In this document: piece after piece, positions 14,446-20,000 of the stretch
Numbering within the stretch: the stretch's first letter is position 1
Layout of the letters: each line of letters begins with the position of its first letter
Source: an uncultured virus (IMG/VR IMGVR_UViG_2700989568_000007)
Lineage: Duplodnaviria > Heunggongvirae > Uroviricota > Caudoviricetes
Strand: one strand, 5' to 3'
IMG/VR virus record: IMGVR_UViG_2700989568_000007
Length of the DNA: 20,000 nt
Notes under the pieces: generated by a model
What the model saw: the letters and a program-made list of their open reading frames with translations, nothing else
What the model was told of the DNA's origin: nothing
Database searches by the model: none
Made by a program: the position numbers and the translations under genes

Positions 14446-14693
14446 TGGAGAAGCTGATCGCGCTTAAACATAAGCTGGACGCCATTAAAGCAATGGGAAC
14501 GAACGCCAAGAAAGAGGCGCTGGCCAGTATGAATGACTTCGAACAAAGAATGGTGTCACTCATGCTGAACCCATTTGTTCGTTTCGGGGTGAAGAAATAC
14601 AAAGTGGCCGATCCACTTAGCAAGTCCGTACCCAGTGATCAGAAAGCGATAGAGCTGCTGGAGCAACTGATTGAAGCAGGAGAATACTCATGA
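14445..14693 (+). pseudogene. Truncated ATP-dependent DNA ligase (N-terminal fragment only)
   Basis: LDAIKAMGTNAKKEALAS...LMLNPFVRFGVKKY...IELLEQL resembles, from memory, the N-terminal DNA-binding domain of T4-type ligases. It ends after 82 aa with no KxDG adenylation motif. Confidence 0.6.
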
Positions 14694-14842
14694 TTCCATA
14701 CATCATATTGACTTTTTCTGGAGGCGTCGCCCTTGGCTTCATCATCTGTCATGACTTGATCAAGCAGGAACTGAAGACCAAAACACTACGTATCGGTAAG
14801 CGGGTATATCGCGTCGTTCACGAGACAGGGGTATCAAAATGA
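14690..14842 (+). CDS. Small membrane protein (50 aa)
   Basis: MIPYIILTFSGGVALGFIICHDLIKQELKTKTLRIGKRVYRVVHETGVSK, with an AGGAG RBS and ATGA overlaps at both ends; too short for the ORF track. Confidence 0.7.
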   Translation: MIPYIILTFSGGVALGFIICHDLIKQELKTKTLRIGKRVYRVVHETGVSK

Positions 14843-15138
14843 GCAATCTAACCTCCTTAGACTGGTGGGTAGGCTTGTACTTTGTGGCCTCTGGTGTCGC
14901 AGTAGCTTTCACGGTTGGCCAGTCTCTTGTAAAGCTACTGCTTTTAAGATTCGCCAATCGCAAGCGTATCGATGACACGCTTTGGTGCCTTGGATCTCTA
15001 CTTGAACAGCGTTACGGCGAGCTGAAGGAAGGTGCAACCCTTTGCATAAAGGCAAAACGTTTCACGGCCACAATCCAACGGACGCAGGATGAGAAGCCAG
15101 TACTGATCAAAAAAGGAGCAAGCGAACGCATGAAATAA
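14839..15138 (+). CDS. Hypothetical membrane protein
   Basis: 99 aa with an N-terminal hydrophobic helix; coupled to the upstream small ORF. Confidence 0.65.
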   Translation: MSNLTSLDWWVGLYFVASGVAVAFTVGQSLVKLLLLRFANRKRIDDTLWCLGSLLEQRYGELKEGATLCIKAKRFTATIQRTQDEKPVLIKKGASERMK

Positions 15139-15142
15139 TAGG

Positions 15143-15156
15143 TAAGTGTTTACTTA
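15143..15156. promoter_or_regulatory. Palindromic operator-like site at the head of the RNA cluster
   Basis: TAAGTGTTTACTTA followed by TGATATAAAT (extended -10-like), a 10-mer also seen downstream of the 4442 site. Confidence 0.55.
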
Positions 15157-15184
15157 TTAAGTTGATATAAATATGATTGACTTA

Positions 15185-15303
15185 TTTTCGTTGAGACGCG
15201 ACTGTTTGAACGTTTAAAGATAACTGCAAACGACAATCAGTATCTGGCAGTAGCCTAAAAAGCCAAACACCAGCGAGGTCAGTTTCCAGCCTCGTCACCG
15301 AAA
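15185..15303 (+). ncRNA. Candidate tmRNA-like RNA carrying an SsrA-type tag frame (ANDNQYLAVA*)
   Basis: ATAACT-GCA AAC GAC AAT CAG TAT CTG GCA GTA GCC TAA (tag 15226-15258), with no in-frame start codon. The flanks can pair (TTTCG/CGAAA, TGTTTG/CAAACA). No canonical tRNA-like domain found. Confidence 0.5.
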
Positions 15304-15338
15304 TGGGACACACTAAGCGAGTGTGATTGCAAAACGCA

Positions 15339-15858
15339 GGTAGGGCATCTGGTTAACCAGTGCCCTTACCGATGAGGTAACAGAATGGGCGGTTGGGTTT
15401 TATGTCCAACACATCCCGGCTCCCAAAGGCCCGACCGTCTATCCTGTTACGTCATTTCTGTTACTTATGTCGTTTAGTTTTGGGTTAAAAATGGCGACGT
15501 AACCCGGCTGGTTAGGTGAGCCAGCACGCAACGTTGAGACCACTGGTTTTTGCATCACAGAGGCAGAGCCGGCAGACATGTAGGGCCAAGTACATTAATC
15601 CGTCCCAGTGGTCTCAACGTTGTGGTCACGGATTCATTATCCTTCTGGTTATAGCCATTGTTGTCACTGCCCCGTGCCCACAACGATTAAATGATTCCAT
15701 ACATCTAATTAGATCTGAATGAAAACTCTCCTCAGCCCTCGGAGAGTATTTGAAGATCTTGGCTTGTAAGCGTTTGGTGAACACGTAAAGCACAAGTGGC
15801 AGGAAACGGTAGGACTGCTGCGAACGACACCGGTGAATCGACAGCGGCTGACGGTGTC
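15339..15858 (+). ncRNA. Cluster of structured non-coding RNA hairpins
   Basis: Stems at 15339-15370, 15372-15455, 15527-15624, 15618-15685, 15725-15747 and 15826-15858. Several deviations are G-U compatible on the + strand, and there is no credible ORF. Confidence 0.55.
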
Positions 15859-15865
15859 AACCTTA

Positions 15866-15940
15866 GATGGTGTAGCTCAGTGGTAGAGCGGTTGACTGTT
15901 AATCAGCTGGTCGGTGGTTCGAATCCCCCCACCATCGCCA
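15866..15940 (+). tRNA. tRNA-Asn (GTT)
   Basis: Acceptor stem GATGGTG/CACCATC, D arm GCTC..GAGC, anticodon loop CTGTTAA, TTCGAAT T-loop, encoded CCA; one T-stem mismatch. Confidence 0.93.
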
Positions 15941-16084
15941 CAACGGTAAGGGTATTTGGACGACAGCAAGGAAGGCGCGCTCTTTGGCTGTTCGCGACGG
16001 ATCTGATTCCCTGAATTCCCTTACCGTTGTGATGAATTGCAGCTCGTTGAAGCAACCAGAAGATAAGCATCTGGCGTCACAACG
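15939..16084 (+). ncRNA. Overlapping hairpin pair between the tRNAs
   Basis: CACAACGGTAAGGG (15939-15952) / CCCTTACCGTTGTG (16018-16031), and CGTTGTGATG (16025-16034) / CGTCACAACG (16075-16084). Confidence 0.5.
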
Positions 16085-16087
16085 AAC

Positions 16088-16174
16088 GGAGGATAGAGGG
16101 CATGGCGCCCAAGCGGTCTTGAAAACCGTCCCATTGCGAAAGCGATGATGGTTCGATTCCATTATCCTCCGCCA
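16088..16174 (+). tRNA. tRNA-Ser (TGA)
   Basis: Acceptor stem GGAGGAT/ATCCTCC, G discriminator + CCA, anticodon loop CTTGAAA, long variable arm, TTCGATT T-loop. Confidence 0.9.
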
Positions 16175-16175
16175 A

Positions 16176-16256
16176 CACAGCGTTGAGCGGTTTGGTTTTG
16201 TTTTTCTTATCGAAAAGACTCCGCCTGTCACCATGGCCAGACCGCTCAACGCTGTG
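16176..16256 (+). ncRNA. 20-bp hairpin directly after tRNA-Ser
   Basis: CACAGCGTTGAGCGGTTTGG / CCAGACCGCTCAACGCTGTG (one G-U pair). Confidence 0.5.
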
Positions 16257-16330
16257 ATAGACATTACGGCAGACGTTCTTTAACCATAGCTTCTAGCATC
16301 TTAGCAACACTTTTTTCAGCGCAAAATCCA

Positions 16331-16350
16331 AAGGGGCTTCGGCCCCTTTT
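16331..16350 (+). terminator. Rho-independent terminator closing the RNA cluster
   Basis: AAGGGGC-TTCG-GCCCCTTTT. Confidence 0.9.
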
Positions 16351-16386: not shown

Positions 16387-16447
16387 CTTACTTTTGTGTT
16401 AACTTTTAGGTATAGTTCGTCTGGTTACTCACTTGAAAGGACTCAAT

Positions 16448-18583: not shown

Positions 18584-18994
18584 ATGAAAGTCACATGGAA
18601 TAGTGATAGTTACGCCCGATTTTTGGAGCCGGTCTTCAGAGTTATGCCAGATCTGAAGACCTCCTTGCTTACTGATTTTGTGAGTTTTAAGAACGGCTTT
18701 TATCCGGCCGTTTTTGGCAAAGATGGCCCCTATACCGAACCTGGTTCTGTAGTTTCCTCTCGTGTTTACCACGTTCATCTCTTATTCACCAAGCAAGAAC
18801 GAAATAGTCACCGAAACAGGTTCAACTGTACAAGCGACCGCGCCCTCGTTTATACCCAGCACGCCAAGTTTCAGGACGTGTATAGTCTGCTGGCCATCTT
18901 CCCAAATAATGCTCACAACACGGCAAATGACAATGGAATAATGAATGACATTGCCAAATACGCTGAAGCCTTCCAGAAATTAACAAACCCGTAG
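18584..18994 (+). CDS. YafO-family type II toxin (mRNA interferase-like)
   Basis: FGKDGPY, YHVHL, TSDRALVY and LLAIF.NNAH motifs match the YafO family pattern. Confidence 0.8.
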   Translation: MKVTWNSDSYARFLEPVFRVMPDLKTSLLTDFVSFKNGFYPAVFGKDGPYTEPGSVVSSRVYHVHLLFTKQERNSHRNRFNCTSDRALVYTQHAKFQDVYSLLAIFPNNAHNTANDNGIMNDIAKYAEAFQKLTNP

Positions 18995-19057: not shown

Positions 19058-19417
19058 TTAGGCACTTAATCTAGTCGTTGCGCGTATGCATAAATATACA
19101 AGGAATAACGGTACAGAAAGCGGCATGCAAAATAACCACAAAATAATGAACATGCCATACACACCGCTATTCACGCCAATGTGACGATCCCAAAAGGGTT
19201 TGGTCATTATCTTAAGGGCTAGTTTCTCCGAAGTATAATATGAGAATGGGTACAGGATGGCGCTTAAAACAAGATATGTAACCACAAATGGCATATAAGG
19301 AGCATAGGCAGGAAAAATGAGTCCGTCATTCATATCGCGCACTATAAAGTAGATCAGATAGCCATAACCACACCATCCCCATAAGCAGTGCCGTAAATAA
19401 TATTTTAAGGTCATCAT
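19058..19417 (-). CDS. Colicin E1-type (pore-former) immunity protein homologue
   Basis: Three hydrophobic segments. MTLKYYL.., SAILYPFSYY..EKLA...KPFW and LFCMPLSVP parallel the ColE1 Imm pattern as recalled (MSLRYYIK..STILCPYSKYAIE..LLCLVLAIP). GAAGGA RBS. Confidence 0.7.
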   Translation of the reverse strand: MMTLKYYLRHCLWGWCGYGYLIYFIVRDMNDGLIFPAYAPYMPFVVTYLVLSAILYPFSYYTSEKLALKIMTKPFWDRHIGVNSGVYGMFIILWLFCMPLSVPLFLVYLCIRATTRLSA

Positions 19418-19724
19418 CTATGATTCCTTCATAGCTATACCGTTAAAGCTATCATATCATGAATTGACGAAGTACCCCCTTCGAGACCAGGCGGCATCGA
19501 GACAGCCATAGACGCAAACATGACTGAACTGGCACCGGACAACGATGGGACATAACGCATAGACAAGGGTGATGTCGCAAACAAACAAGCGGGAAATGAA
19601 TGACTCTGCCCAGATGACTAATTTTCAAAAAAAAGGCTTTCTATGATTCCATACTTGGTAGGTATGGAATCATTAGACAAAAGAGGGTATTTTAGGTTGA
19701 TCTCAATAAAAACAATGCCTAATA

Positions 19725-19743: not shown

Positions 19744-20000
19744 GTGCGCCGGGAGACCGGTAGAGATCAAGGGGTGAAAGTCCCCGACCATTGAAGGACC
19801 AGCAATCCACAAGGTCCCCGAGTCATGCGTTGCATACCGCGAGGTATGGGGCGAAGCGTTGACAGGGGTGTTGACAGGCCAGCCATTGAGCCACGAAATG
19901 TATATTAAATTACCGGGTGCCGACGTTGTACTGTTAACGGAAGGCAACATCATAGGGTGCGATACTGCGAGTGCCACATGGACCCGGCGGGGTCTGAGAC
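19744..20000 (+). mobile_element. Group II intron, 5' end (domain I), continuing beyond the window
   Basis: Begins with GTGCG, with an abrupt AT-to-GC shift. Domain I-like elements: GGGGTGAAAGTCCCC, CCCCGAGTCATGCG, GAAGCGTTGACAGGGG and GCCATTGAGCCACGAAA. A candidate EBS1 loop is complementary to the upstream exon. Confidence 0.8.

Follow-up and report, generated by a model that had tools for sequence, protein, structure and literature searches.

Background

In bacterial ribosomal RNA (rRNA) operons, RNase III stalks flank the 16S and 23S rRNA, and the tRNA cluster of phage T4 includes the stable RNA species 1 and 2, which are co-transcribed with the tRNAs and released by processing. RNase III processing sites were also reportedly described in the late leader RNA of phage lambda, to go by the title of an article by Daniels, Subbarao, Blattner and Lozeron (Virology, 1988). 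Here we describe an operon free of open reading frames (ORFs) in a 20,000-nucleotide (nt) stretch of DNA, below called the window, from an uncultured virus of the Caudoviricetes (IMG/VR record IMGVR_UViG_2700989568_000007). The operon carries six hairpins (hp1 to hp6), two tRNAs and, at its 5' end, a cassette related to transfer-messenger RNA (tmRNA). The hairpins are members of a broad family of stalks of about 20 base pairs (bp) with a fixed base and hypervariable loops, which is without a name and apparently undescribed.

The window is an SSU5-like phage-plasmid of Klebsiella. Klebsiella plasmids are 100% identical to it across a 1.25-kb stretch containing the operon, the Klebsiella phage vB_KpnS_p4727 is 99.9% identical, and Salmonella phage SSU5 and Escherichia phage Cyrano show 73–83% identity to the same stretch, the tRNA part of which also matches P1, P7 and D6. 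The operon is homologous to the leader of the ban operon of phage P1; in the P1 record the annotation places the homologous stretch, which contains tRNA-Asn and tRNA-Thr, downstream of the C1-controlled ban promoters.

The locus resembles the lambda late leader in that a stalk is followed by a reverse element, the stalk has the base CACAAC/GUUGUG and a stem of the same length, and both lie in an untranslated leader; it differs in having six elements interleaved with tRNAs and a second arm type (CAACGUUGAG). As with the rRNA stalks, long helices would form from both sides of a stable RNA in a polycistronic precursor with tRNAs, but the segments enclosed by members of this family are 27–81 nt long and hypervariable, and the fixed base is common to many unrelated cargoes. 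The T4 species 1 and 2 are likewise small structured RNAs beside phage tRNAs; unlike the present hairpins, they are not known to form a repeated scaffold family.

Two further systems bear on the locus. An exhaustive survey of 2014 lists phage tmRNA only in mycobacteriophages, Bacillus phage G and DS6A, the tmRNA of mycobacteriophage DS6A consisting of the tRNA-like domain only (Hudson et al. 2014, PMC4131195). The PR' moron region of lambdoid prophages encodes the anti-sRNAs AgvB and AsxR as well as other small RNAs, and the anti-sRNAs have been mapped to primary start sites of transcription (Tree et al. 2014, PMC4104026). These small RNAs resemble the present elements in combining a conserved with a variable part and in their untranslated late-leader neighbourhood. 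No Rfam match to the anti-sRNA or STnc100 families was obtained in the window; STnc100 (RF02076) scores 33–43 bits, below the cut-off of 47, beside an hp6-like stalk in P1, P7 and D6.

Results and discussion

Six hairpins and two tRNAs

All six hairpins proposed in an initial annotation, made from the sequence alone, are present, five being recovered by repeat search and the sixth, hp5, by reading and folding (Table 1). Arms were taken from the repeat search, and the fold energy of each hairpin was compared with 200 shuffles; hp5 is marginal by this measure. The fold of the + strand is better than that of the − strand in all four hairpins tested (−40.5 vs −29.3, −45.0 vs −41.9, −40.9 vs −34.2 and −44.0 vs −38.5 kcal/mol). 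Helices of about 20 bp or more, that is about two turns, occur in hp1, hp2, hp4 and hp6; those of hp3 and hp5 are shorter. The four stems of 20–29 bp are the only hairpins of at least 18 bp in the 1.9 kb scanned. They abut one another and the CCA ends of the tRNAs, and hardly any single-stranded sequence separates the modules.

Five of the six hairpins share the basal motif CACAACG/CGTTGTG, as initially proposed, while hp1 has diverged to GTAACAG/CTGTTAC. The pattern CRCARCG has 29 matches in the window compared with 12.7 ± 3.5 expected, a count reached by none of 200 shuffles, and 8 of the 29 fall within the 730 bases from 15527 to 16256. A point that had been missed is that the orientation of the motif alternates (CACAACG, CGTTGTG, CACAACG). 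The 7-nt word CGTTGTG is common to hp2 and hp3, and likewise to hp4 and hp5, so that neighbours overlap; because each pair shares the middle copy, the basal pairings of hp2 and hp3, and those of hp4 and hp5, are mutually exclusive. The last hairpin, hp6, stands alone without a third motif copy, and its base CACAGCG/CGCUGUG is a compensatory version of CACAACG/CGUUGUG.

The tRNAs lie where the initial annotation placed them, and two stems begin 0–2 nt from tRNA CCA ends: hp4 at 15939, within the CCA of tRNA-Asn, and hp6 at 16176, two bases past the CCA of tRNA-Ser. The general tRNA model does not match tRNA-Ser(UGA), whose tRNA-Sec-like score of 44.1 bits lies just below the cut-off of 47; in the D6 record the amino acid of its counterpart is noted as not called. 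One SSU5-like locus (L045, 1862–1936) has a tRNA-His(GUG) in the usual slot of tRNA-Asn(GUU), which may be an anticodon change.

Table 1. Features of the operon, all on the + strand. Positions are those of the window. The last three columns give the arms found by repeat search (start/end, arm length, identity), the fold energy in kcal/mol with its z-score and the number of shuffles that fold as well, and the number of base pairs in the helix.
Position	Strand	Feature	Basis or remark	Repeat-search arms	Fold energy; z; shuffles	Helix pairs
15149..15177	+	promoter-like site TTTACT-17-TATGAT	9/12 matches, consensus match only			
15184..15225	+	cassette leader AUUUUCGUUGAGACGCGACUGUUU...	complementary to host tmRNA around the resume codon			
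15226..15258	+	tmRNA-tag-like frame GCA...TAA = ANDNQYLAVA*, no start codon	conserved frame			
15245..15328	+	stop codon in small hairpin loop, H-type pseudoknot candidate, hairpin ACACACU/AGUGUGA	RNAalifold pairs			
15372..15455	+	hp1, stalk after the tag cassette, base GUAACAG/CUGUUAC	repeats, folding, alignment	15372/15455, 26 nt, 81%	−40.5; −5.4; 0/200	26–29
15465..15527	+	conserved hairpin or pseudoknot candidate, then 6-bp hairpin with 7-nt loop	just before hp2			
15527..15624	+	hp2, 20-bp stalk CGCAACGUUGAG.../...CUCAACGUUGUG, 58-nt loop	repeats, folding, covariation	15529/15622, 18 nt, 100%	−45.0; −6.3; 0/200	20
15618..15685	+	hp3, reverse-type CGUUGUG...CACAACG	5' arm = 3' arm of hp2	15618/15685, 14 nt, 93%	−22.9; −4.3; 0/200	13
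15691..15705	+	ATGATTCCATACATC copy	copy of the start of ORF 14690; 3' edge of the tag/hp1–3 block			
15866..15940	+	tRNA-Asn(GUU)	tRNA search			
15939..16031	+	hp4, stalk CACAACGGUAAGGG.../...CCCUUACCGUUGUG	same type as the lambda late-leader stalk	15939/16031, 18 nt, 94%	−40.9; −4.8; 0/200	20–23
16025..16084	+	hp5, reverse-type element	sequence conserved between SSU5-type and P1-type elements		−19.7; −2.65; 3/200	10
16088..16174	+	tRNA-Ser(UGA), type II	tRNA search			
16176..16256	+	hp6, 24-bp stalk CACAGCGUUGAG.../...CUCAACGCUGUG	repeats, folding, covariation	16176/16256, 20 nt, 95%	−44.0; −9.0; 0/200	24–25
16333..16350	+	likely terminator GGGGC-UUCG-GCCCC + U-run	by reading, then folded			

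Covariation and the folded strand

The stems covary among relatives in hp1, hp2, hp3 and hp6. In one scan of IMG/VR viral contigs, 46 of the 47 loci with the hp2 arm type CAACGUUGAG were this operon in SSU5-like or P1-like elements. Among 27 unique hp2 sequences, 98.8% of the alignment cells are paired, 3 pairs are compensatory and 18 cells are changed on both sides, with none of 500 shuffles reaching either the pairing or the number of such cells; moving the partners by 1–3 columns as a control lowered the pairing to 29–56%. The basal 12 bp of hp2 are near-invariant. Nine of the ten pairs at positions 3–12 are identical in 27/27 sequences, and a single sequence breaks the tenth; in the two outermost pairs the only variation is G-U wobble. 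We infer that this fixed sequence is due in part to one word needing two pairing partners.

Compensatory changes were found at 2 positions in hp6 (17 unique sequences) and at 3 positions in hp3, where the set comprises 21 of 22 unique sequences after removal of L018, whose 3' arm is mutated so that the search pattern took a distant site. In hp1 (31 unique sequences) G-U is the alternative at 7 pairs, and one pair shows a compensatory change (UA in 18, GC in 12). The hp4 element occurs in 68-, 87- and 93-nt forms with loops that are unrelated between close relatives, and hp5 is 93–97% identical to P7-type loci, with 6 unique variants. Across the hairpin classes of the window, the non-Watson–Crick cells comprise 50 G-U compared with 7 A-C, an excess indicative of folding on the + strand. 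Together with the compensatory changes, and with 159 G-U cells compared with 12 A-C cells in the wider family described below, this bears out the earlier suggestion of RNA structure on the + strand.

Our interpretation, to which we assign a probability of roughly one half, is that the stalks mark boundaries in a polycistronic precursor of stable RNAs and are processed there in the manner of RNase III substrates, and that they are also joints for the swapping of modules. It is favoured by the size of the helices, which is that of RNase III substrates, by the near absence of spacer, by the distance of 0–2 nt from the CCA ends and by the homologue in lambda. With RNase III as the presumed enzyme and the order of events likewise presumed, the segment 15184–16350 would be transcribed as a single untranslated precursor with a tmRNA-related RNA, two tRNAs and at least one conserved small RNA (hp5) as cargo. 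At the module boundaries hp1, hp2, hp4 and hp6 would form double-stranded stalks of 20–29 bp, which host RNase III would cleave in the way it cleaves the helices flanking 16S and 23S rRNA. Trimming would next remove the short remnants from the tRNA 3' ends as far as the CCA, and RNase P would generate the 5' ends of the tRNAs. In hp3 and hp5, which use the same 7-nt closing word, the closing helix would form only once the preceding stalk has been opened. At the DNA level the fixed words would provide short homologies for the loss, gain and swap of modules between phages.

A family of stalks with variable loops

Two arm-pattern scans of viral contigs yielded at least 120 and 77 loci, respectively, in total at least 197 loci with 211 occurrences and 140 unique hairpins. 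The loops of the 140 unique stalks fall into 63 clusters, and the initial idea of a constant scaffold with a variable loop therefore holds on a large scale. The family is also seen in the lambda late leader, in P1, P7 and D6 and in SSU5 and Cyrano, and it is not restricted to phage-plasmids, as lambda and many phage contigs of 27–60 kb carry it. Positions left free by the search pattern are paired in 85–100% of cases, with A-U, G-C, C-G and U-A all occurring, and pairing beyond position 13 drops to 31–39%, which gives the stalk a sharp end. A U-U mismatch is kept in 120/140 and a U-G wobble in 115/140 stalks; a bulged A was required by the search pattern, and its constancy in the set is uninformative. 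tRNAs flank 54 of the 197 loci, and 112/112 of these tRNAs are on the strand of the stalk.

In lambda the stalk lies at 44787–44948 in the late leader, between tR' and gene S, and reads CACAACAGGTAAGAGCATTG, loop, CAGTGCTCTTTCCGTTGTG; the reverse element that follows is closed by CGTTGTGCTG...CAGCACAAC. The lambda homologue has no Rfam match at E-values up to 1. No homologue of the lambda stalk is present in E. coli K-12, and published RNase III maps of K-12 are therefore unusable here. The hairpins of the window have no match in Rfam 15 at the gathering score, and at E-values up to 10 only chance-level matches to microRNA precursors appear; the Rfam check suggested by the initial annotation thus produced no full match to a known family. 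In the literature searched, part of it in the form of excerpts, no paper was found that names the hairpin family or a tmRNA-like RNA of P1, SSU5 or Felix O1.

Two further elements recur among these loci. A small hairpin CTGGTTA(A/G)CCAG is found at 15345–15356 in the window, at 436–447 in the lambda locus (L175) and in 7/140 stalk loops. In P7 (L004, 1650–1797) and in many other loci of the family, the stalk is followed by a conserved 147-nt element (approximate length), CGTTGTGGTGAATGCGC...CCGGCCACCACAAC; its opening GTGAATGCGC is present in 32/140 unique cases, it has an 11-bp closing helix and a covarying 5-bp hairpin near the 3' end, and it has no Rfam match.

The variability of the loops raises the question of whether the loops themselves are the selected products. 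Under this explanation, which overlaps with the processing interpretation and differs from it only in the product under selection, the stalks are display or maturation scaffolds whose constant stem clamps the ends of an exchanged accessory small RNA, such as a regulator, a decoy or a tRNA-like fragment. The 63 loop clusters with a sharp stalk/loop border are consistent with it, as are one loop cluster that keeps its sub-hairpin through G-U changes, a small hairpin in the hp2 loop with one pair changed between lineages (by reading), and perfect T-arm-like hairpins in 10/140 loops compared with 0.10 expected; ARAGORN found no tRNA in 58 long forms of the family. Small RNAs with conserved and variable parts are moreover known from the lambdoid moron region (Tree et al. 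2014, PMC4104026). Against these points, loops at the same position are unrelated between close relatives, as in the three forms of hp4, and no Rfam family matches. We consider selection on loop products unlikely, and nothing points to a guide function, as had been suggested for the array.

The near absence of spacer would also be expected if the hairpins were never cleaved and served as structural elements that shield the untranslated transcript from Rho and exonucleases and keep the folding of the tRNAs independent. Selection on the stems with a free loop sequence fits this explanation as well, but it accounts neither for the near-invariant basal sequence, nor for the conserved U-U mismatch and U-G wobble, nor for the maturation of a tRNA 3' end that lies within a 20-bp helix, and we regard it as quite improbable.

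Inverted repeats with variable centres could alternatively act as hairpins of single-stranded DNA, as in integron attC sites or other recombinase or replication sites, or derive from miniature inverted-repeat transposable elements (MITEs), and DNA hairpins tolerate G-T mismatches. attC sites have the core sites RYYYAAC/GTTRRRY, extrahelical bases and an integron integrase nearby. By reading, CACAACG/CGTTGTG does not fit these cores, the stems have no bulged bases, and no integrase is present among the 22 ORFs scanned, so that an integron attC was rejected. MITEs and other elements with terminal inverted repeats were rejected on the lack of flanking target duplications and on the fixed orientation relative to the tRNAs (112/112). 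DNA hairpins of any such kind are very improbable. An array of clustered regularly interspaced short palindromic repeats (CRISPR), or a solitary-repeat RNA anti-CRISPR, was likewise rejected, as the motif copies alternate in orientation and the repeat search gave no direct-repeat family longer than 20 nt.

Several observations weigh against the interpretation of the stalks as processing signals. The link to the RNase III processing of lambda RNA in vivo consists of a paper title and the position in the leader. The RNA-library contigs that contain the region prove neither transcription nor RNA ends, and rnc-dependent cleavage is a prediction. The near-invariance of the hp2 base in 27 sequences exceeds what pairing alone requires, and RNase III has weak sequence preferences; a sequence-specific factor, or pairing with two partners, may be the real constraint on this base. 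With 13 bp in hp3 and 10 bp in hp5 (z = −2.65), these two helices fall below the length of a classical RNase III substrate, and some loop clusters retain sub-hairpins of their own, a feature more in keeping with cargo RNAs than with spacers. The initial annotation had also considered that the hairpins might turn out to be simple tRNA-processing stems. This comes close to the interpretation preferred here, but the fixed base and the hypervariable, partly structured loops go beyond simple spacers.

Shuffling of modules between relatives

The order and content of the modules vary among relatives. In Cyrano a tRNA-Thr occupies the slot in which the window has hp4 and hp5. P7 and D6 have the order Asn, Thr, hp4', hp5', hp2', hp3', Ser, hp6', with hp2/hp3 placed before tRNA-Ser, and in other loci Arg, Tyr or His tRNAs fill the same slots. 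The breakpoints between relatives coincide with the motif, and loops are swapped between constant arms. Two contigs from RNA libraries illustrate the variation. The contig of run X1 contains the whole stretch, whereas that of run X10 skips 15677–15936 (260 nt, including tRNA-Asn), between two copies of (G)CCACAACG; nothing from run X4 aligned to the stretch. With G at position 15677, as in most relatives and in X1, the skipped segment is flanked by two direct copies of GCCACAACG, and we therefore read it as a loss between direct repeats, in a contig that cannot tell a DNA from an RNA event.

These data raise the possibility that the shared words are primarily DNA-level linkers for the recombinational shuffling of tRNA and small-RNA cassettes, with the hairpins as a by-product. 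The breakpoints at the motif, the skip in X10 and the swapped loops are all expected on this explanation, although the X10 joint could be of either DNA or RNA origin. Linkers have no need of self-complementarity, however, and the strand-specific excess of G-U cells (159 vs 12), the compensatory changes and the orientation fixed relative to 112/112 tRNAs argue for a role in RNA. Linkers as the primary function are thus rather improbable; the interpretation as processing stalks accommodates the same exchanges as a secondary property of the fixed words.

A tag cassette complementary to host tmRNA

The operon opens with a compact cassette of about 160 nt, which spans 15184–15340 in the window and carries no RNA annotation. 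Like tmRNA (RF00023), it has a tag of the ANDENYALAA type, a resume-like context, a hairpin loop that contains the stop codon and, downstream of this, a pseudoknot candidate (GCGAGG/CCUCGU with UUCCA/UGGGA, by reading only). Its tag frame lacks a start codon and opens with an Ala codon, as in tmRNA. The frame is kept in 50/52 related loci, with variants that include ANEDTYLAVA, ANEEVYLAVA and ANDDLMMVAA, and the changes among loci are synonymous and conservative. Insertions or deletions of 1–2 nt occur just upstream of the frame, and the last Ala codon is GCC, GCT or GCA, which together form the pattern predicted by selection on a translated tag.

The cassette is present in 46/197 stalk loci, and a stalk at the position of hp1 directly follows it in P1/P7 and Sf11 as well. 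A blastn search gave 771 phage records with the cassette, among them Felixounavirus and Kuttervirus, siphoviruses of the Sf11-like type and of Klebsiella, and Erwinia phages. Among the 40 matches listed of the 771, none has an RNA annotation: 34 have no feature, one lies in an unannotated record, four are under coding sequences of a "hypothetical protein" and one is under the coding sequence of the RIIA lysis inhibitor.

The cassette differs from tmRNA in two respects, namely in the lack of a detected tRNA-like domain and in a leader that is antisense to host tmRNA. The tRNA-like domain of tmRNA comprises an acceptor stem with G3-U70, a T-arm and a 3' ACCA. ARAGORN found no such domain at default or lowered thresholds, and searches with RF00023 over the whole records of P1, SSU5, Cyrano and G001 returned the tag or true tRNAs only. 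Rfam tmRNA hits over the tag are all sub-threshold, the best scoring 24.1 bits against a cut-off of 47 (RF04321). A brute-force acceptor/CCA search for a tRNA-like part gave noise only, and a search for a T-arm with a complementary acceptor gave only a true tRNA and no partner acceptor piece. Circularly permuted alignment to E. coli ssrA gave z = 0–1.5 when the query was permuted, and at best z = 2.7, with 3–4 of 200 shuffles as good, when it was full-length or lacked its mRNA-like domain. The cassette is in this sense the converse of the DS6A tmRNA: a coding part without the tRNA part. In phage PhiSH19 (L381, about 1300–1360 and 1690–1900) tRNA-like pieces adjoin the tag cassette, consisting of a T-arm and, after it, an acceptor-like strand, which in one case has UCCA; they are not called by ARAGORN.

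The invariant 5' end of the leader, GUUUUCGU, is complementary to the codons GAC GAA AAC of the host tag, and the block after it to AGUCGC and CCGCAA, which immediately precede the resume codon of the host. For 10/10 lineages, compared with 0/600 shuffled leaders, the best duplex that the leader forms with E. coli ssrA lies at nt 54–81 to 104–105; for the leader of the window it lies at nt 56–104. The duplex of this leader spans the resume codon in 22 of 31 Enterobacteriaceae tmRNAs, and the target is conserved in 25 of the 31, those with ANDENYALAA. Six long leaders reach −39 to −46 kcal/mol compared with −28 to −35 kcal/mol for shuffles (0–2/200 as good), whereas for four short leaders, that of the window included, the duplex energy alone is not significant (14–48/200). 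For every leader, pairing with host tmRNA is about twice as strong as pairing with the tag region of the same cassette (−23.4 vs −10.8 kcal/mol in the window).

These results lead us to propose, tentatively, that the operon opens with a phage anti-tmRNA of about 160 nt. Its 5' arm would pair with nt 54–105 of host tmRNA, that is with the 3' side of pseudoknot 1, the resume codon and the tag up to codon 5, and it would bring its own resume context and tag frame (...YLAVA, ...MMVAA, ...FLAVA), so that rescued ribosomes would be re-templated or trans-translation blocked. Such an anti-tmRNA may substitute its own tag template. The CACAAC stalks would then be a maturation-and-exchange system for this and many further small cargo RNAs, shared among the enterobacterial phages lambda and P1, SSU5-like elements and Sf11-like siphoviruses.

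In P1-type elements the leader can also pair in cis with an internal segment (in P7, 736–769 with 1070–1103 of L004; −31.7 kcal/mol, 18/20 bp). This duplex is invariant in 11 sequences and possibly self-masking; it is not conserved in SSU5-type elements. A closing helix between the 5' and 3' ends indicated by RNAalifold in SSU5-type sequences was dropped, as the likely start site removes half of it.

Boundaries and setting of the operon

The hairpin region is an ORF-free gap of 1.3 kb between the ORF at 14839–15138 and a PhoH-like ORF at 16433, and the surrounding ORFs are phage tail, ParA-like, DnaB-like, primase-like and PhoH-like. From the promoter-like site (Table 1), judged by its sequence, RNA synthesis would start at about 15184; in the independent cassette relatives HY02 and Sf11 a promoter-like site also lies just 5' of GTTTTCG (by reading). 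Transcription of 15184–16350 as one unit is plausible. The single precursor from about 15170 to 16350 proposed in the initial annotation agrees with the promoter-like site, with the hairpin and U-run at its end and with the common orientation of 112/112 tRNAs; the hairpin at 16333–16350 was not flagged by a terminator scan.

The sequence ATGATTCCATACATC has 4 matches with at most 2 mismatches in the window compared with 0.07 expected. The copies at 14690–14704, 15691–15705 and 19643–19657 are on the + strand and that at 19659–19673 is on the − strand; one opens a 50-amino-acid ORF, one lies just 3' of hp3, and two form an inverted pair. Farther downstream are an ORF of the YafO toxin family and an ORF with a colicin E1 (microcin) immunity domain (18584–18994 on the + strand and 19058–19417 on the − strand, respectively), followed by the start of a group II intron at 19777–20000 (RF02005, 176.9 bits), which is truncated by the end of the window.

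Conclusions

For the stalk family a mechanism of a known type is plausible, and the adjacent tag cassette is the more novel RNA. Should the stalks prove to be processing signals, they would provide temperate coliphages, lambda and P1 among them, with a reusable "cut here" module for the expression of tRNAs together with a large and fast-changing repertoire of small RNAs that is unannotated and outside Rfam. The tag cassette, unnoticed in 771 sequenced phages from several unrelated groups, bears on the old question of why several phages depend on or interfere with tmRNA. If our reading of it is true, the fate of tagged proteins would be changed during infection, and a phage RNA antisense to tmRNA with a substitute tag frame would represent a new viral route to reprogram ribosome rescue.

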